Assembly: GCF_004010195.1 (NCBI RefSeq)
Contig: NC_057754.1
Span: 7,764,725-7,828,724 of the forward strand
Direction of reading: 5' to 3'
Source of the DNA: Chiloscyllium plagiosum
Lineage: Eukaryota
Length of the DNA stretch: 64,000 nucleotides
Position numbers and translations under genes: made by a program. Of the stretch, positions 4,300-51,520 are shown piece by piece. The notes beneath the pieces are model-generated. The model saw nothing but the letters and a program-made list of their open reading frames with translations. It was not told the origin of the DNA and did no database searches. How positions within the stretch are numbered: the first letter of the stretch is position 1; each line of letters opens with the position of its first letter.

Positions 4300-4550
4300 A
4301 GGCCTCTGAAGGGGGCGGGGCAATGGTGCGGGGGGGGGGAGGGGCAAAGGACTACAACTCCCAGCGGCCCCCGGGGCGGGGCGTACGCTCCGCGGCAACC
4401 GCACGCCGATTGGCTCGCGTGACCCGGCGCTGGGAGGCGATTGGAGAGCGGGGGGCCGTCAATCACGCGGAGGGGCGGAAGTGGGGCTGGAGAGTGTCAT
4501 GGCCGGGGCTGTGTGAGGGGGACATGTGAGCAGCAGCAAGCAGCAGACAG
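4300..4550 (+). promoter_or_regulatory. CpG-island promoter and probable non-coding exon 1 of the AKR gene
   Basis: CpG-dense. GC boxes at 4311 and 4373, ZNF143-associated motif ACTACAACTCCCAGC 4351-4365, reverse CCAAT boxes 4409-4413 and 4440-4444, ETS motif CGGAAGTG 4476-4483, splice donor CAG|GTAACC at 4550/4551. Confidence 0.7.
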
Positions 4551-5644
4551 GTAACCTACCAGCTACAGGTCCTGCCTTTAACACTGTGGCCTTTGCAGGT
4601 AATGCAGAGGCTACACGAATTCTGCATTCATACTGATGCTATTAATAGTTTTACCAGGTCTGCTGTCCCATTAGACAGTGACCATGTGGGAGGTGCTGGT
4701 GTTGGACTGGAGGGTGGGCAAAGCCTTTTAAAATAAAAACCACAATACACCAGGTTACAGTCCAACAGGTTTATTTGAAAGTACATTCCTCTGCTCCTTT
4801 GTTGGGTAGTTAGTGGCGCAGGATACACAGGGCACGGGATTTATAAGTAAAAGATCAAAATGTGGTACATCTCATGCAATGTGTTGAACAAACCCACGTG
4901 AGTCTTTAATCACTTAGAACGGGGAGGCTGGTTTCGATGGATTGAGAGAGGGACTGACTGGCTGAGGGCTGCTGTACTCCAGGCGGGAGGTGGGGGGCGG
5001 CAAAAAGAGAGAGAGATACTGAGACTGAGGAGATCTCTTCGTGGTAACCTCAGCCGGTCATGGGTTTCGAACTTGGTGCCACAAAATGCCGCCAACCGAT
5101 CTTCTGGCTGACAGAGCTGAACTGACCCCCACTCCCACGTTGGGATGCCTAATTCCCCACCATTAAAAAATCAAATACTTCCCCTGCCCCCCCTTCCCCC
5201 AATCACCACCACCACCATTGTTGCTTCTCGGCATCATGGGGGTGCACGCTCAGATACCCAGTGCATCAAAAGTGTAAAAATAAAGGACACGCGGTGTGGG
5301 ATCTAATTTCGTGGCCACCGGGGGTCAGAGCCATGTCCCTCGACGATCACCTCTTTCTCTCAATCTCAGGTAACCCAGTCTCCGTCCATTGGAATAAAAA
5401 TCCAGGGGAAAAAAAATTGATAACTTTTTTTCCTGCCTGTAAAGAAATTATTTTGGTTTGGATGTTAATGATGCGCAGGGATAAGGCAAGAGACTGGTAC
5501 TGGGGAGCAGTGCCAGACGAGATGACTGAGTCAGTGCGGCACAGTGGGCCGAATGGCCTCATACTGCACCACATCAATTTTGTGTAAAAAAACAAAAATG
5601 TGATTTTGTGTATGTGAAATATAAAAATGTTAGCCACTTAGAGC

Positions 5645-6035
5645 AGCACCGTGGCTCAGTGGTTAGCACTGCTGCCTCACAGTGCCAGGGACCCGGGTTC
5701 GATCACACCCTCGGGCAACTGTGTGGACTTTGCACATTCTGCTTATGACTGCCTGAGGTTTCCTCCGGCTGCTCCGGTTTCCTCCCACAGTCCAAAGATG
5801 TGCAGGTTAGGGTGTATTGGCCGTGCTAAATTGTCCCAGAGTGTCCAGGGATGTGCAGGTTAGGGTGGATTGGCCGTGCTAAATTGTCCCATAGTGCCCA
5901 GTGCAGGTTAGGGTGGATTAGCCGTGGGGAATGCAGGGTTACAGGGATAGGGTGGCAGGTGGGTCTTTGGATGTTTGGTTTTGACTTGATGGGTTGAATG
6001 GCCTGCTTCCACACAGTAGGGATTTTATGATTCTA
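5645..6035 (+). mobile_element. HE1-type V-SINE
   Basis: A box gtggctcagtgg, B box gggttcgatc, V-SINE core ggtttcctcccacagtccaaagatgtgcagg, CR1-like tail. Confidence 0.85.
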
Positions 6036-6931
6036 GGGAGGGTACCCTCATAAGAACAGCGGTAGGTGATTGCATCCATCCTTCACTGGATTGGCTCAAG
6101 GCACTGGATCCCTGCTGATGTGAGGCGGCAGTGCTAACCACTGAGCCTCCTTGCTGCCCACAGTGTTCAAGGGTGTGCAGGTTGGGTGCATTAGTCAGGG
6201 GTTAAATATAAGGGAATGGGTCTGGGTGGGTTACCCTTCGGAAGGTTGGTGTGGACATGTTGGGCCGAAGGGCCTGTTTCCACACTGTACGGGGTTCTAT
6301 GATTCATTCTATGACTATAATAATCCCGCAATCTACAGCCAGATCTTTCCTTCCATTTTGTCAGATGCCAGATGTGAATTCAAAAGAAAGAAATTCTAAA
6401 GCTTGCATCCGAACATACTACTCTGATGTATCACATATCATTCAAAATTGAGCCCCATGAAATATGACCATACTGTGGCAAGCATTTGACTGAGGAACAC
6501 TAGGTCCTTGCAGCCTCCTCCACCATTCAATAGGGTCATGGCTGATCTGATATGAGTCCGTTCGTTTCCAAATACTACTGACATTCTTATCTTTGGGTTC
6601 CAATGTGCCAAATCTTATCGTGTTCCCAGGAAAATGAGGGATAAAAGAAACCTGTTGGAAACCAGTATAACGTAGAAATGAACTTGCTGCTTGTACCAGA
6701 GTTGACCAGGAAGTATTGGGATTACTGACTTCCTGGCATTTGGAACACCCTCAATTAAAAAGTCTTTTCTGGTGCAGACAGAGCCATTCGGCCTGTCGCA
6801 TTCAGGCTGGGCTTTCCCAAGGAGTGCTTCCCCCAGCAACACTCCCCTGCACTCCTGCCCACTCTCCCTGTTCAGATAATAATCCTGATTCCCTGTTAAA
6901 GGCCTGGATTGAACCTGTCTCCCCGCAAGAC

Positions 6932-7525
6932 AGGACATTCCAGACCCTAACCCCTCGGGTGAACCTCCCCCTCACCCCCACACACTCAGTATGTTTCAGA
7001 CCCTAACCCCTCGAGAGAATCTCCCCCTCACCACCACACACTCAGTATGTTTCAGACCCTAACCCCTTGAGTGAACATCCCCCTCACCCCCACACACTCA
7101 GTATGTTTCAGACCCTAACCCCTCGGGTGAACCTCCCCCTCACCCCCACACACTCAGTATGTTTCAGACCCTAACCCCTCGAGAGAATCTCCCCCTCACC
7201 ACCACACACTCAGTATGTTTCAGACCCTAACCCCTTGAGTGAACATCCCCCTCACCCCCACACACTCAGTATGTTTCAGACCCTAACCCCTCGGGTGAAC
7301 CTCCCCCTCACCCCCACACACTCAGTATGTTTCAGACCCTAACCCCTCGAGTGAACCTCCCCCTCACCCCCACACACTCAGACAGTACGTTTCAGACCCT
7401 AACCCCTCGAGTGAACCTGCCTCCCCCTGACACCGTGAGACAGTACATTCCAGACCCTAACCCCTTGAGTCAACCTCCCCCTCCCCCAAACTGTCAGACA
7501 GTACATTCCAGACCCGAACCCCTCG
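6932..7525. repeat. 56-bp minisatellite, about 10 units
   Basis: Motif gtatgtttcagaccctaacccc recurs with its ATG at 6991, 7047, 7103, 7159, 7215, 7271 and 7327. Confidence 0.95.
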
Positions 7526-8436
7526 CTGTGTTAAATTTTCCCTGAAATCCTTTTTTATTTGTTTTCCGTACCCTCCTGTTCTCAACCCTGCGTGAATGGT
7601 TTCTCCCCATTTTCTGTCCAAGCCCCTCAGCATTTTGGACAGCTCCTGTTGGATTTCTTGCCAGCTTTCTCTTCACTGACATTACCAACTTCTCGAGTCT
7701 TGAGAGCTAACGTTCCTCATCCCCGGAATCATCCATGTCGGACTCTGCCCCTCGAAGGATAGTACTATGGGAGTGCCACATTGGCAGAGTTTCCATTCTA
7801 GTCAATGTCCCAGCTGCCCCTTGACTGACACTAAAGGATCCCGTGACTGCTGTTGAGAAAGGGAGAGGCGAATGGGTGGCCTCGTTGGGGTGTTGACCAA
7901 CATTTATGTCGTACCCACCCTCACTGAAACGTGATCTGCTCATTAACCCCATCGCTGGGAGTGGGACCCAGCCCTGAGCAAGTTAGCTCCAAGCTGAAGG
8001 TTCGTCACTGTCAGTGAAATGCTCGGGCTTCCCGAGTACATGACTGGCGCTACAGAAATGCAGGTCTTCCTTTCCTCCTACGTTTTTGGGTAGCATTTGG
8101 ACAGCAAGTGCAGTCTCGACAGAGACAGCAAGTCGGAAACGGGGTGGGGTCGATGTAGGGTGGGGGTTAAGATAGCTGAAATTCTATCAACGTGAGTCAA
8201 CAGGGAGTAGCCAGGTACGAGATGTGACATGTTTGATGCGATGTTTGCGCAGTGAGTTCTTACGTGGTCTCTGGAAAGATGCAGCAAATAATTTCAACCG
8301 CACCGGTCAAAATATCTTTGACTTAAGTCCTCAGAACTCTTGCAAATTTACCAGAGCGTTGGGGAAGGGTTGGGATTAATCGGATAATGTGGGTCATTAC
8401 TGGAAAGAGAGGCATCCTGCCAACATTGTGCGTCCT

Positions 8437-8725
8437 GCACGGTGGCACAGTGGTTAGCACTGCTGCCTCACAGCGCCAGGGATTTGGGTTCAATTCCCAC
8501 CTTCGGCGACTGTCTGTGTGGAGTTTGCACATTCTCCCCGTGTCTGCATGGGTTTCCTCCCAAAGATGTGCAGGTTAGGGTGAATTGGCCGTGCTAAATT
8601 GCCCGTAATGTTAGGTGAAGGGGTAAATGTAGGGGTATGGGTGGGTTGCTCTTCGGAGGGTCGGTGTGGACTTGTTGGGCCGAAGGGCCCGTTTCCACAC
8701 TGTAGGGGACCTAATCTAATCAAAT
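8437..8725 (+). mobile_element. HE1-type V-SINE
   Basis: gcacggtggcacagtggttagcactgctgcctcacagcgccagg head; (ctaat) tail. Confidence 0.85.
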
Positions 8726-8949
8726 CATGTTATGGGCTTGCCTGTATATTTCCAACTAATTCTTAAATTGTCATTTTTCTGCCTGTTGTGGGAGGTGAGT
8801 GTCTGAGGCAGCATTGCTGCCTTTTCAACCACACCAAGTTTCAATTGGATAACTCTTATCATTGAGCTGGCACAGGCTGTCTGGGCTGAATGGCCACATT
8901 CTGAACTGAATGCTTCTGAGAAGCTCCACAGGACCAGGTGAGGTCTGAG

Positions 8950-9590
8950 CAGAAGAAGTAGCAGCAGAAATAGGCCATTCGGCCCATCAAACCTGCTCCT
9001 CCTGCAACATGGAGGGATATGGGCCGGGTGCTGGCAGGTGGGACTAGATTGGGTTGGGATATCTGGTCGGCATGGACGGGTTGGACCGAAGGGTGTGTTT
9101 CTGTGCTGTACATCTCTATGACTGTATTAGATCGTGGTTGATCTGGTCATCTTCAACTCTACTCTCCTGCCTATTCCCCATACTCTTTGATTCCCTCCCT
9201 GGTTTAGAACTCTGTTTATCTCAGCCTTCGATATACTTACTGACCCAGCCTCGACATCCCTCTGTGGTGAAGAATTCCACGGATTCACTCCCCTCTGAGA
9301 GAAGAAATTGCAAACCATCTCAGTCTTAATCATGTGACCCCTTATTCTGAGATTACGGCCTCTGGTCCGAGACTCTGCCGCAAGGGGGAGACTGCCTCTC
9401 TGCATCTACTCTGTAAGAACTTCAATAAGGTCGCCTCTCAGCGCTCGAAATTCCAATGAGTACTGGCCCAATCTACTCCACCTCTCCTCATAAGACAATC
9501 CATGCAGACCTAGTACAGCCCAGCGGACCTTCTCTGGACTGCCTCCGATGCCAGTATAGCTTCCCTTAGGTAAGGGACCCAGAACTGTTC
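8950..9590 (-). mobile_element. CR1/HER1-like LINE 3' remnant with an opposite-strand CR1 tail nested at ~9010-9125
   Basis: ORF 9127..9405(-) contains SRTRGRNLRI...NFFSQRGVNPWNS, typical of the CR1 ORF2 C-terminus. Confidence 0.75.
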
Positions 9591-9639
9591 CCTTTGCAAC
9601 TTAGGCCAATATTACATTTACCTTCCATACTAACCACTG

Positions 9640-9952
9640 CGCGGGGCAGCACATTGGCTCAGTGGGTTAGCACTGCTGCCCCCCACAGCGCCAGGTTCGA
9701 TTCCAGCCTCGGGCGACTGTCTTTGTGGAGTTTGCATATTCTCCCCGTGTCTGCATGGGTTTCCTCCCATAATTCCAGGGATGTGCAGGTTAGGGTGGAT
9801 TGGCCATGCTAAATTGTCCCATAGGGATTTGCAGGTTAGGTGCATTAGTCAGGGGTAAATGTAGTAGGGTACTGGGTGGGTTACTCTTTGAAGGGTCAGT
9901 GTGGACTTGTTGGGCTGAAGGGCCTGTTTCCATACTGTAGGGATTCTATGAT
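9640..9952 (+). mobile_element. HE1-type V-SINE
   Basis: Head ggcagcacattggctcagtgg, B box ggttcgattcc, conserved body and tail. Confidence 0.8.
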
Positions 9953-10516
9953 AAGTTGGGTGCTAGCGTTTTGTGATCCATGGATGAGAGCTCCCAATTC
10001 CTTCTATTCCATAGCATTCCGTTTAAATAATCTTTGGCTCTGTTCACATTTCCCCACATTGTATTTCATCTGCCAAATCTTTGCACACTCATTTAACGTG
10101 TCTGTGTCCCTAAGCAGATTCTGAGAGTCATCCTCACCACTTGCCTTTCCATGTACATTTGTACTGTCCAGAGATTTGGCGATTAATATATTCACTTTCC
10201 TCATCCAAGTTATTCATATCATAGAATCCCTACAGTACAGAAAGAGGCCATTCGGCCCATTGAATTTGCACTGGCTCTCCGAACAGCATCCCACCCTATC
10301 CCCCAATCCTGCCTTCCCATGGCTAGCCCACCTCGCCTGCACATCCCTGGACACTGTGCGGTAATTTTCCACAGCCAGTCCACTGAAACCTGGATATCTT
10401 TGAACTGTATTGAGAGAGGCTGGTACAATGACAACATTTTAAAGGCATCTGGATGGGACATGAATAGGAAGGGTTTGGGGGGATATGGGCCAAGTGCTGG
10501 CAAATGGGACTAGATT

Positions 10517-10705
10517 AAGTTAAAAATCACACAACACCAGGGTATAGTCCAACACGTTTTGGTTGGAAGCACTAGCTTTCGGACACCCACCTGATGAAGG
10601 AGCAGCGCTCCGAAAGCTAGTGCTTCCAAATAAACCTGTTGGACTCTAACCTGGTGTTGTGTGATTTTTGTCCACCCCAATCCAACACCGGCATCTCCAA
10701 ATCGA
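10517..10705. mobile_element. Palindromic PLE-derived element (second family) with 9-bp target-site duplication
   Basis: Inverted arms 10522-10583 and 10609-10669, flanked by gactagatt at 10508-10516 and 10706-10714. A related decayed sequence starts near 4735. Confidence 0.75.
10588..10622 (+). ncRNA. Minimal type I hammerhead ribozyme motif
   Basis: Stem I CAC/GUG; CUGAUGA 10591-10597; stem II GGAGC-agc-GCUCC; GAAA 10612-10615; self-complementary AGCU stem III; CUA cleavage triplet ending at 10619. Confidence 0.75.
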
Positions 10706-10962
10706 GACTAGATTGGTCTCTCCCATCCAGATATCCTAAATTAAAGTGTCTGTAGGACTCGTCGTATCTCCCTAATCCATTTGGTTATTCTGGTGAAGAG
10801 TCACCGGACTAGGAATGTTAACTGTGCTTTCTGTCTCGCTCCAGACCTGCTGAGTTTCTCCAGCTGTGTGTGTTTTTTTTTGCTGTTTCAGATCCCCAGC
10901 GCCCGGGGTCCTTGTTACTTCCCCGTTGTGTCCTCCAATTCCCAGCGGTCTGAACAGGGAGG

Positions 10963-11817
10963 ATGGACAGTGTGCAGCTCAACAACGGGGTGGAGATGCC
11001 TCTGCTAGGCCTCGGCACCCACAGGTTGCGAGGGTATGAGGCCGTGTACCGGGCGCTGGATGCCGCGCTCAGGCACGGTTACCGCTCGGTCGACACGGCC
11101 AGCGTGTACGGCAACGAGGGGGACATCGGCAGGGCGCTGGCAGAGCTGCTGCCCAGGCACGGCCTGTCCCGGGCCGACGTCTTCATCACCAGCAAGCTCT
11201 CGCCAGCGGATCAGGGGGAGCGGGCCGAAGAGGGCGCCTTACGGAGCGTGGAGACCTTGGGCTGCAGCTACCTGGACCTCTATCTCATCCACTGGCCCGG
11301 CCGTCAGGGCTGGAAGAGCGAGGACCCCCGTAACCCGGGGTGCAGGCGCCGCAGCTGGGAGGCGCTGGAGGGCCTCTACAAGAGAGGCCTCTTCCGGGCC
11401 CTCGGAGTGTCCAACTACACGGAGGGCCACCTCAGGGAGCTGCTGGCCCATTGCCGGGTGCCGCCGGCCGTGCTGCAGGTGGAGTATCACCCGCGCCTGG
11501 TGCAGAGCGGCCTGTTGGCCTTCTGCGCCGAGCACGGCCTCCACCTGCAGGCCTACTCTTCCCTGGGCACAGGGTGCCTGCTGGAGGAGCCTCAGGTACA
11601 GGCCCTGGCCTCTGCCTACGGCCGCAGCCCCGCCCAGGTGCTGCTGCGCTGGGCCGTGCAGCAGGGCATCGGGGTCATCCCCAAGTCGGCCAATACCGAG
11701 CGCGTTGCCGCCAACGCCCGGCTCTTCGACTTCTTCCTGGCCCCGGAGGACGCCAAGCTGCTGACCGGGCTGCACTCTGACAGCCACTACTGCTGGGACC
11801 CCCGGGCTGTCGTCTGA
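10963..11817 (+). CDS. Aldo-keto reductase (NADPH-dependent), 284 aa, uninterrupted ORF
   Basis: N-terminal LNNGVEMPLLGLGT; catalytic tetrad D44 (DTA), Y49 (VYGNE), K78 (TSKL), H110 (LYLIHWP); GVSNY, LQVEYHP and IPKS cofactor motifs. Codons are strongly GC3-biased. Pyrimidine-rich acceptor ...tcctccaattcccag at 10945. Confidence 0.95.
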   Translation: MDSVQLNNGVEMPLLGLGTHRLRGYEAVYRALDAALRHGYRSVDTASVYGNEGDIGRALAELLPRHGLSRADVFITSKLSPADQGERAEEGALRSVETLGCSYLDLYLIHWPGRQGWKSEDPRNPGCRRRSWEALEGLYKRGLFRALGVSNYTEGHLRELLAHCRVPPAVLQVEYHPRLVQSGLLAFCAEHGLHLQAYSSLGTGCLLEEPQVQALASAYGRSPAQVLLRWAVQQGIGVIPKSANTERVAANARLFDFFLAPEDAKLLTGLHSDSHYCWDPRAVV

Positions 11818-17789: not shown

Positions 17790-18253
17790 NNNNNNNNNNN
17801 NNNNNNNNNNNNNNNNNNNNNNNNNNNNNNNNNNNNNNNNNNNNNNNNNNNNNNNNNNNNNNNNNNNNNNNNNNNNNNNNNNNNNNNNNNNNNNNNNNNN
17901 NNNNNNNNNNNNNNNNNNNNNNNNNNNNNNNNNNNNNNNNNNNNNNNNNNNNNNNNNNNNNNNNNNNNNNNNNNNNNNNNNNNNNNNNNNNNNNNNNNNN
18001 NNNNNNNNNNNNNNNNNNNNNNNNNNNNNNNNNNNNNNNNNNNNNNNNNNNNNNNNNNNNNNNNNNNNNNNNNNNNNNNNNNNNNNNNNNNNNNNNNNNN
18101 NNNNNNNNNNNNNNNNNNNNNNNNNNNNNNNNNNNNNNNNNNNNNNNNNNNNNNNNNNNNNNNNNNNNNNNNNNNNNNNNNNNNNNNNNNNNNNNNNNNN
18201 NNNNNNNNNNNNNNNNNNNNNNNNNNNNNNNNNNNNNNNNNNNNNNNNNNNNN
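17790..18253. other. Assembly gap (464 N)
   Basis: Run of n. Confidence 1.
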
Positions 18254-20279: not shown

Positions 20280-20779
20280 NNNNNNNNNNNNNNNNNNNNN
20301 NNNNNNNNNNNNNNNNNNNNNNNNNNNNNNNNNNNNNNNNNNNNNNNNNNNNNNNNNNNNNNNNNNNNNNNNNNNNNNNNNNNNNNNNNNNNNNNNNNNN
20401 NNNNNNNNNNNNNNNNNNNNNNNNNNNNNNNNNNNNNNNNNNNNNNNNNNNNNNNNNNNNNNNNNNNNNNNNNNNNNNNNNNNNNNNNNNNNNNNNNNNN
20501 NNNNNNNNNNNNNNNNNNNNNNNNNNNNNNNNNNNNNNNNNNNNNNNNNNNNNNNNNNNNNNNNNNNNNNNNNNNNNNNNNNNNNNNNNNNNNNNNNNNN
20601 NNNNNNNNNNNNNNNNNNNNNNNNNNNNNNNNNNNNNNNNNNNNNNNNNNNNNNNNNNNNNNNNNNNNNNNNNNNNNNNNNNNNNNNNNNNNNNNNNNNN
20701 NNNNNNNNNNNNNNNNNNNNNNNNNNNNNNNNNNNNNNNNNNNNNNNNNNNNNNNNNNNNNNNNNNNNNNNNNNNNNNN
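20280..20779. other. Assembly gap (500 N)
   Basis: Run of n. Confidence 1.
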
Positions 20780-21475
20780 GCCTCACAGTGCCAGGGACCC
20801 AGGATCAATTCCAACCTCACGTGACTGTCTGTGTGGAGTTTGTACATTCTGCCTGTGTCTGGATGCTATTTGCTCGCATAGTCCAGGGATATGCAGGTTA
20901 GGGTGGATTGGCTGTGCTAAATTGTCCCATAGTGCCCAGGGATGTGCAGGTTAGGGTGGATTGGCCGTGCTATATTGCCCCATAGTGCCCAGGGATGTGC
21001 AGGTTAGGGTGGATTGCCGTGCTATATTGCCCCATAGTGCCCAGGGATGTGCAGGTTAGGGTGGATTGGCCGTGCTAAATACATCCATTTAGTGCGGCAT
21101 GTGGACTCAGTGGTTAGCACTGCTGCCTCACAGTGCCAGGGACCCAGGATCAATTCCAACCTCACGTGACTGTCTGTGTGGAGTTTGTACATTCTGCCTG
21201 TGTCTGGATGCTATTTGCTCGCATAGTCCAGGGATGTGCAGGTTAGGGTGGATTGGCCGTGCTAAATTGCCCCATAGTGCCCAGGGATGTGCAGGTTAGG
21301 GTGGATTGGCTGTGCTAAATTGTCCCATAGTGTCCAGGGATGTGCAGGTTAGGGTGGATTTGTCAGACGTAAATATAGGGTCGGGGAAAGTGTCTGGGTG
21401 GGATAGTACTTTGAGGGTTGGTGTGTACTTATTGGGCCAAATGTCCTGTTTCCACACTTTCAGGATTGTATGAAT
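20780..21475 (+). mobile_element. Tandemly duplicated HE1-type SINE with internal 53-bp repeats
   Basis: 20780-20890 is essentially identical to 21124-21234, with multiple gatgtgcaggttagggtggattggccgtgctaaattg units. Confidence 0.85.
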
Positions 21476-21719
21476 TAAAGCCCAGAGGGCTGTGCGTCTG
21501 GACTGATCTTTAGGCCAGATTGGGCAAAGGTGGCTGATTTCCTTCTAGAAAGGAAAATGGCGAATGAGGCGTGGTTTCCTGACTTATCAACAACGGTTCA
21601 TGGTCATTGTTCGACTCTGAACTCTATGTTGTTATTGCTGTTCCATTGCAGCAGCAGACGATGCGGGATTCGAACTCACTTCCCCAGAACCTGAGCCTGA
21701 TGTCTGGGCTCATTGTCCC

Positions 21720-25937: not shown

Positions 25938-26238
25938 CTGACATAAGAAATTGTTGGATAAGCTCAATATCTGCCTAACCCTAACCCTCACCCTATCCCT
26001 AACCCTGACCCTAACCCTAACCCTGACCCTAACCTTGACCCTGACCCTGACCGCAGCATCTGTGGAGAAAAATCAGAGATAACATTTTGGGTCCGGTGAC
26101 CTTTCCTCTGAACCGTATCAGAAACGTTAACTCTGATTTTGCTTCACAGATGCTGCCAGATCTGCTGAGCGTTTCCAGCAACTTCTGTTTTTGTTCCTGA
26201 TTTACAGCATTTCTTTTGGTTTTTAGTCTGACATAAGA
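25938..26238. mobile_element. Palindromic PLE-derived element (third family, cores decayed) with 11-bp target-site duplication
   Basis: ctgacataaga at 25938-25948 and 26228-26238; inverted arms gcagcatctgtg...agagataac and gttaactctg...cagatgctgc. Confidence 0.65.
25974..26052 (-). repeat. Interstitial telomere-like tract (CCCTAA/CCCTGA)n
   Basis: About 13 hexamers: ccctaa, ccctca, ccctga variants. Confidence 0.85.
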
Positions 26239-42190: not shown

Positions 42191-43295
42191 TCACTCTGCT
42201 TTCGAGAAGTAGCTTTGTATGTAAAGGAATTGGCGGTGTTTGTAGCAGTGTCTACACATCGCGCTTTACCCCATTAATACCATCAGGAGCATGGAAAGAA
42301 AGGCTTGTATTTAGACCGCCCTTAGAAGGGCTTCCGCAGTGAGTCACTTTGAGGTATGGTGACAGGTTACACAGGCACTCTATATTGGGATCGCGTTGGA
42401 AAGGGAGTCTGCTGAGTGAACTGAGCTAGTTGACTTGGTCCAAAGTGAAACCTGAGGTTTATGCCAATGGTACTTGTCCCTTACTCTGTTGTTCATTCAC
42501 CCTGGTAGGTCACCACTGATACCTGGGGAAAGCACCATGCAGCTCCCCATTTGGGATAGTGCCTTTTATGACCTGCCTGACCCGCCAGAGCATTTTAAAG
42601 GAAGTGTGCCAACCAAATTGCACACAGCTAGCTTCCCGGTACATCGATATGGTGCTGGCCAGCTTCTCTGAACTCCTGTGCCCATCTGCCAGGGCCTGTG
42701 ATCTTTCAGTTGAGTGGGAGAGTCCAGACAAGGCCTCAAAGTTTAGCGTTTCCTCCAAAACGCAGCACGTCTGATGCCTCAGCACTCCTTGAGCAGTCTT
42801 GGAAATGAATACTTGGCTCACGGACTCAAGTCGCCAGAGTGGGGCTGGAACCCGCAGCTTTCTGATCCACAGATGAGAGAGAGGGGGAGGGCGCCAACTA
42901 TTCATGCCTGGCTGACTGTTGACAGAGTCGAGAGTGCGGTGCTGGAAAAGCACAGTGGGTCAGGCAGCATCCGAGGAGCAGGAGAATCGACGTTTTGGGC
43001 AATCGGCCTTTCATCTGGAGTCTACATTCCTAATGAAGGGCGTATGCCCAAAACATCCACTCTCCTGCTCCTCGTATGCTGCCTGACCTGCTGTGCTTTT
43101 CCAGCGCCACACCTTTTTGACTATAAATCCAAAAACTCAACTAATTTCTGGGGACCTGCATTCAAATCCTACCACAGCTCATTCCTCATGTGTCAGGCAA
43201 GAGTGTTGAGGTGTTGAAGACCTTGAAATGTTGAACCTGGTGGATGGGGTGCCAATCAAGTTGGACTACTTTGTGTTGTTGGAGCTGCCCTTATT

Positions 43296-51279: not shown

Positions 51280-51520
51280 AATGCTTCAGACGCTCAGTAA
51301 GAGGTCTGACAGCATCTGTGGAGAGAGATCGGAGTCAGTATTTCTGGTCCAGTGACCCTTCCTCAGAACTGGAGCCCTTCACTCAGATGAGTTCTAAGGA
51401 AGGGTCACGTTGACTAGAAGTGTTAGCTCTGGATCGTTTCCCACAGATGCTGCCAGACCTGCTGAGTTTTTTCCAGCAGTTTCTGATTCTGTATTTGTTT
51501 GTGATTTCCAGCAGCCGGAG
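51280..51520. mobile_element. Palindromic PLE-derived element (third family, decayed)
   Basis: Inverted arms cagcatctgtgg...gacccttcctcagaact and agttctaaggaagggtc...ccacagatgctg. Confidence 0.6.

Follow-up and report, generated by a model that had tools for sequence, protein, structure and literature searches.

The window, as we call the whole stretch of Chiloscyllium plagiosum DNA analysed (64,000 nt), raises the question of how a hammerhead ribozyme motif came to lie between inverted arms within an intron of an aldo-keto reductase (AKR) gene, and what state it would adopt in the transcript of that gene. The explanation considered very probable is a dead-on-arrival insertion of a Penelope-like 3' terminal repeat: a 120-nt sense copy with an intact minimal hammerhead and a tail lies head to head with a 67-nt inverted copy, and the arms are predicted to hold the ribozyme off in the AKR pre-mRNA.

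Inspection of the sequence, together with a descriptor search, identified a minimal type I hammerhead on the plus strand at 10588-10622 with the full conserved core CUGANGA, GAAA and UH. Stem I, of only 3 bp, pairs CAC (10588-90) with GUG (10620-22); within it lie the core box CUGAUGA (10591-97), a bulged A after A9 (10598), a 5-bp stem II with a 3-nt loop (GGAGC, 10599-10603, with GCUCC, 10607-11), the core box GAAA (10612-15), and G-C-U-A at 10616-19, where A17 is 10619. The palindrome AGCU (10615-18) replaces stem III, and the cut predicted from the motif falls at 10619/10620 of the same strand. An initial annotation of this DNA had claimed a complete core, both stems and AGCU in place of stem III, and all of these are present. 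The descriptor (core, stem II of at least 4 bp, palindromic minimal stem III, stem I of at least 3 bp) had this site as its sole match on both strands of the 64 kb, and no match in 300 dinucleotide shuffles; relaxation of stem I to 2 bp added two matches, at 1255 and 3537, both copies of a second family in the window (family 2). Searches with Rfam covariance models, at gathering as well as E-value thresholds, gave no hammerhead match, probably for want of the stem III that such models expect, and four weak Rfam hairpin matches (E 0.15-1.2) were dismissed as chance. As a sequence feature, the hammerhead motif in the AKR intron is real.

Hammerheads of this form have been described from the pLTRs of metazoan Penelope-like elements, mostly as solo truncated copies with no activity as monomers and little as dimers (Cervera and de la Pena, 2014; PMC4209133). 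With the accessible parts of that report, the shark motif shares the core boxes, the bulge between positions 9 and 10.1, the G10.1-C11.1 pair (here G10599-C10611), the palindromic 15.2-16.2 (G10616/C10617) and the short helix I, which together correspond to the features that define a min-HHR there. It differs in its stem II of 5 bp and in having only half of a second motif on the other strand. The published copies are mostly solo and truncated, with some paired on opposite strands, as are those of the shark; supplement file 2 of the same report holds no shark min-HHR.

The insertion that carries the motif measures 189 bp and is truncated beyond any ORF, with inverted and sense copies joined head to head. 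Its inverted arms, which the initial annotation had put at about 60 bp, were found at 10522-10583 and 10609-10669, and align with 56 identities, 5 mismatches and 1 gap; they differ at 6 of 62 columns (about 90% alike), and the arm fold has a z of -10.8. The left arm (10517..10583, minus strand) is an inverted, 5'-truncated, tail-less terminal-repeat copy of 67 nt that holds only the 3' half of the hammerhead; no CUGANGA, and hence no core, occurs on its minus strand. The sense copy (10584..10705, plus strand, about 120 nt) is also 5'-truncated, family sequence extending upstream of 10583 in other copies, and the two overlap by 1 nt at 10583. Beyond the hammerhead, the sense copy holds an AAUAAA at 10629-34, family poly(A) addition points after 10645-47 and 10649 and a GU/U-rich stretch (together 10629..10669, plus strand), followed by an unpaired tail of 36 nt (10670..10705, plus strand). 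The description of the element as palindromic is therefore borne out for its arms and not for its overall symmetry, the tail lying outside the right arm.

The ends of the insertion were placed with the help of other copies. In their loose ends, family sequence past 10669 is the complement of 10517-21, which puts the most likely start of the left arm at 10517, directly next to the direct repeat; the same 5-6 letters from 10517 also match the host repeat, and the right arm of this copy is without 6 family letters at 10669/10670. The family carries a branch-point-like stretch, pyrimidines and CAG at 10669-10680; this sense intronic copy has lost the 6 letters and carries an A at 10680 in place of the G that makes up 93-96% of family depth. 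Loss of the branch-point-like letters and the AG could be chance among 4-5 changes.

The 9-bp direct repeat GACTAGATT stands at 10508..10516 and 10706..10714 (plus strand), with a chance expectation of about 4e-5 for a slot of 10 positions; the left copy, a likely target-site duplication, ends in ATT. It lies within an older dispersed host repeat (10416..10516, plus strand; presumably a LINE-like 3' remnant), the insertion target of the element, whose continuation appears as loose ends at 10517/10522. This host repeat has 14 other matches to 10400-10530 within the window, where the 9-mer also occurs at 9042 and 60233, and Pfam gave no family for two frames related to it. On the right, 10715..10744 (minus strand) is a scrambled flank of inverted host-repeat pieces. 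It includes a 17-nt mini-hairpin, the 3' part of the host repeat is absent, and the whole looks like templated repair. The repeat asserted earlier is thus present at both ends; with its left 9-mer inside an older repeat and its right flank scrambled, it stays a candidate, and likely, duplication rather than a proven one. No empty site was found among the 15 joints shown of 229 or the 12 between-letter rows shown of 260.

This anatomy is that of the published Penelope insertion unit, and its kind has already been described. Pen2a_Av of Adineta vaga has an inverted pLTR, a 9-bp duplication and a 31-bp tail on one end, head-to-head junctions being the most frequent (PMC3846280); the same insertion-unit scheme is given in PMC8557442, and Penelope of D. 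virilis bears inverted repeats of varying size (PMC2377424). As far as the available portions of these three papers go, endonuclease-bearing Penelope-like units and the shark insertion share an inverted truncated pLTR by the 5' end, in head-to-head orientation with an arm of variable length, a tail of 30-40 bp on one end only, and, provided that the 9-bp repeat is one, a duplication of 8-10 bp; the shark copy differs in being truncated to 189 bp in total, without an ORF. The tail, inverted copy and 9-bp repeat agree with the earlier assignment of a Penelope-type minimal hammerhead to a retrotransposed insertion. Pattern scans of viral, metagenome and prokaryote collections returned no matches and no RT-GIY-YIG frame was linked to this repeat, so that Penelope membership rests on anatomy together with the motif.

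The PAc protein (Poseidon of Anolis carolinensis) cuts and extends both strands, prefers ATT and is a predicted dimer; its reverse transcription (RT) starts at two sites bounding the tail, and its hammerhead needs protein, is dispensable for insertion in vitro and leaves no RNA-seq ends at the cut site (PMC11167929, from the sections available). Two RT starts bounding the tail, the preference for ATT, in which the shark direct repeat ends, and the lack of RNA ends at the hammerhead site are shared with the shark family, whereas the shark family has a poly(A) site between hammerhead and tail that is absent from what could be seen of the PAc description. It is on the published Penelope insertion anatomy and these PAc activities that we base a proposal of two-ended priming. 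The element's endonuclease would nick both strands, 9 nt apart, and each 3' end would prime reverse transcription, the distal start giving the tailed copy and the proximal start the tail-less one. Both cDNAs would stop at the hammerhead, one at its front edge and one inside stem II, and would then be joined over the 1-nt overlap. The parent element probably uses its hammerhead either as a dimer or together with its own protein; in the present copy the motif would be a passenger. We take such two-ended priming to resemble L1 twin priming. Self-priming on an antisense template also makes a head-to-head palindrome (Arkhipova et al., in the text accessible) and fits equally well.

Evidence from other copies came from four of 24 listed runs, compared with 9950-11350 at 93% likeness: X2 and X13, both contig sets of DNA size; X21, raw single-cell poly(A) reads amounting to about 2% of that run; and X5. 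Matching contigs numbered 58,819 (X2) and 39,135 (X13), host repeats counted in, and summed depth at 10608-54 reached 5.6e6 and 4.9e6 as opposed to 7 and 49 on unique exon, depth not being copy number; the element belongs to a very abundant family. Just past 10669, many copies give way to flanks unrelated to one another (107 and 62 contigs; agreement 0.42 and 0.41). Of the 15 joints shown, 14 touch the element; in 13, the arm (10536-10552) is connected to the sense copy (10583-10628), in some cases through intervening known letters. Alignments broken at mismatches of this copy (10542, 10554-62) may account for part of the spread. Other copies thus join arm and sense copy at different points, and the palindrome was likely made at insertion.

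Further copies lie in the window. An older decayed family copy with tail occupies 4689..4810 (minus strand) of the same AKR intron; a start of this copy at the cut site, as its BLAST end indicated, was rejected, since a global alignment runs on through stem II. The upstream family motif had no match in the window. Family-2 minimal hammerhead copies lie at 1255, 3152, 3537, 43030, 49913 and 63368, and 42930-43112 is a head-to-head family-2 pair with one decayed hammerhead per strand, about 8 nt apart. The region 1-2509 forms a palindrome that is 99.2% perfect, with arms of about 1.25 kb and its axis inside the core of the family-2 hammerhead at 1255; it is either a real long fold-back or an assembly artefact. 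N gaps span 17790-18253 and 20280-20779, and near-identical repeat blocks (20780-21083 and 21085-21478) follow the second.

The clustering of starts at the hammerhead gives rise to an alternative that is unlikely but deserves weight, namely that what moves is a SINE-like non-autonomous derivative whose template is an RNA of about 120 nt starting at the hammerhead's front edge, the inverted arm again being a by-product. The sense copy here starts 7 nt ahead of the hammerhead core, five of the seven family-2 copies in the window start 3-10 nt before theirs (query 49910 region; matches 43027, 1245, 3534, 3149 and 43019), and the loose ends at 10583-89 rank with the best supported ones in each of the four runs. 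However, 156 RNA reads carry shared family sequence on the 5' side of 10583 (agreement 0.69), which indicates that longer templates exist, no 5' ends pile up, and a reverse transcriptase stalling at structure would give the same clustering.

Across the family, the core decays like its surroundings. G12 (10612, a CpG) is A in 15.7% and 16.1% of DNA depth, C11.1 is T in 22-23%, and loop and stem CpG positions are changed in 13-21%, these figures coming from 40 rows shown of 61. G12 is changed at the rate of loop CpG positions, and copies therefore decay without sparing a catalytic base, contrary to the excess conservation of the core that had been anticipated; in this copy the core and both CpGs are intact. 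Among the same 40 rows, non-CpG variants fall in loop II (10604, 10605) and at 10630 and none in the core boxes, which fits constraint in parent lineages. Compensatory changes were found in none of six pairs over seven family-2 copies, while the three window families differ in the letters of stems I, II and the palindrome and still pair (by inspection, with no statistic). In the RNA reads of X21, G12A occurs in 79 of 665 (11.9%) and is not enriched, and no pile of ends was found anywhere, including 10619/10620, where the initial annotation had looked to RNA ends as a check; a 3' product of 30 nt would be lost from such a poly(A) library. The RNA, which may come from few loci, gives no sign of efficient cleavage.

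The host gene was defined from an ORF at 10963-11817 (284 aa), an aldo-keto reductase by Pfam (PF00248), whose 90% cluster includes proteins named from Chiloscyllium punctatum and Hemiscyllium ocellatum. The N-terminal residues of a shark orthologue (P0003) map to 4506-4549 in two frames, and residue 17 onward to 10891. This mapping delimits an intron at 4551-10891 between the 3' part of exon 1 (4500..4550, plus strand; donor 4550/4551, CAG/GTAACC) and exon 2 (10892..11817, plus strand; PF00248 and orthologue mapping). The exon junction from P0003 confirms that the element is in sense orientation inside the AKR intron, as proposed earlier, and corrects its distance from the acceptor: the CAG at 10889-91 is 272 nt downstream of the cut site, and the figure of about 330 nt given before fits the AG at 10946-47, the gene having two AG acceptors (10891 and 10947). 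The C. punctatum orthologue is annotated with 40 additional N-terminal residues, which a frameshift and a stop disrupt in the window (4500-4550, 10892-10962), so that the intron lies in the 5' UTR. One X21 read starts at 10889, with a depth of 0.02 in the 47-nt bin before 10890, and X5, only presumed to be RNA, has a depth of 31 on exon 2 versus 3-4 at 9950-10184; both are consistent with AKR splicing and lend it thin support. An older decayed hammerhead-type repeat of a third family (10788..10915, plus strand) contains the AKR pyrimidine tract and the acceptor CAG, and the splice site may thus derive from such an element. This repeat includes the first bases of exon 2, and related copies lie at 19118-19042, 53217-53134, 51453-51512 and near 26140.

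In X21 (one run, one sample), 370 family reads end in poly(A) 11-15 nt after AAUAAA, with the A-runs of 245 behind 10645 (after two letters) and of 125 behind 10649, at median lengths of 70 and 67 letters. The hexamer is 9 nt behind the cut site, with the GU/U-rich stretch downstream, and the window is not A-rich there. A common variant at 10630 gives AUUAAA (197 of 702 reads; 26-27% of DNA depth; 26-28% over three runs), and sense family reads exceed antisense by about 4:1. Three upstream consensus ends (10583, 10587 and 10588) suggest several source loci; no X21 read touches the unique flanks, so that none of the poly(A) reads can be attributed to this locus. A-runs encoded in the genome at other copies are a possible source of these reads; 10645 and 10649 were not among the six loose ends shown per DNA run (24 rows shown of 946). 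No statement on a poly(A) signal in Penelope repeats was found in the openly accessible passages covered. The 3'-UTR hammerhead of Clec2 is likewise cut upstream of a polyadenylation signal, where cleavage would remove the poly(A) end; as described in the parts seen of PMC6765202, that motif is a split canonical ribozyme active in host mRNA, whereas the shark motif is minimal, 9 nt from its hexamer, and its cleavage putative.

Retention or domestication of this copy by the host, such that hammerhead, poly(A) site or hairpin would regulate the AKR pre-mRNA by cleavage, premature polyadenylation or editing, is very unlikely. Its sense orientation 272 nt before the acceptor and the family's poly(A) ends at this site favour such a role. 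So does the recurrence of the tail-to-flank junction in one contig of each DNA set (10678-11350 and 10685-11350; 28 and 21 element letters, below the 31-letter rule), the alleles differing both from the window and between the two sets. However, minimal monomers are inactive in vitro (PMC4209133, text as available), and in the predicted fold the left arm pairs with the whole of the GU-rich stretch and mostly with four of the six hexamer bases, masking both. The same intron holds seven AAUAAA/AUUAAA hexamers, and the absence of reads on the unique flanks in 2% of run X21 bears on host use neither way.

The predicted folds, whose energies are without tertiary or protein terms, bear on the earlier suggestion that the arm provides a built-in on/off fold. 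The left arm does pair with the 3' half of the core in these predictions, as had been foreseen. In RNA that includes the arm, constraining the fold to the hammerhead costs 12.0 kcal/mol relative to the ensemble if the RNA ends at 10622 and 24.5 kcal/mol for the full element, and stem I has a probability of 0.0; with the arm removed, the gap is predicted to fall to 1.4-3.9 kcal/mol for RNA up to 10714, or 9.7 if extended to 10900. Transient formation of stem II is predicted with the RNA end at 10612-16, before the ribozyme is complete; otherwise stem II is free only in transcripts starting at 10576 or later, in which the probability of stem I is still below 0.1 for RNA ended at 10680. A conformational RNA switch would require two folds of similar energy and was rejected on a gap of 12.0-24.5 kcal/mol; the hairpin is predicted to be a permanent off state for the hammerhead in AKR pre-mRNA rather than a toggle. 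A palindrome moving as a non-autonomous unit, its hairpin an on/off switch for the ribozyme, is thus highly improbable. The complete core, the strong hairpin, the direct repeat and the brief formation of stem II speak for such a unit, but the energy gap, the 6 differing columns of the arms and the variable junctions of other copies argue against it; among 24 pieces listed of 101,738, none crosses the 10583/10584 junction by more than 2 letters, a weak point given contigs fragmented in repeats. The self-propagating palindrome proposed initially is accordingly less well supported than a by-product of insertion.

A foldback DNA element or MITE, or an assembly artefact, is hardly credible: a long inverted repeat with a short direct repeat would suit the former and palindromes are error-prone in assemblies, but the 36-nt tail is asymmetric, a hammerhead is present, arms only 90% alike and junctions vary, and the right junction recurs in contigs of other samples. 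Non-LTR retrozymes, reported in one cartilaginous fish, form head-to-tail tandem arrays with a motif per unit (bioRxiv 10.64898/2026.07.22.740005); to the extent that this preprint was accessible, they share with the shark insertion a non-coding, pLTR-derived type I hammerhead and differ from its single head-to-head unit. Such a retrozyme was rejected here, there being a single core and no direct repeat of the unit in 10200-11000 or in the window.

Set against the dead-on-arrival insertion, a single locus that matters little as one of very many stubs of an already described kind, the family poly(A) site and the masking by the arm are leads beyond the Penelope features described in the literature accessible, absence from which is no proof of novelty. 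A joint reading of the family, doubtful when taken as a whole, would be that the shark Penelope terminal repeat compresses into 120 nt a hammerhead, a functional poly(A) site that follows the cut by 9-30 nt, a stretch resembling a 3' splice site and two RT start points. The ribozyme would remove the poly(A) tail, only read-through RNA would be copied, and sense intronic copies would be traps for host transcripts; fold-back copies would persist in genes because the arm masks both ribozyme and poly(A) site. If this family-level reading holds, a poly(A) site between the cut and the RT starts would couple cleavage to 3'-end processing, and would bear on the open question of the role of the hammerhead in Penelope-like elements. 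The intronic copies, which would number tens of thousands and of which some have a masking arm and others lack one, would then constitute a natural experiment on how a genome tolerates insertions that bear a ribozyme and a poly(A) site.
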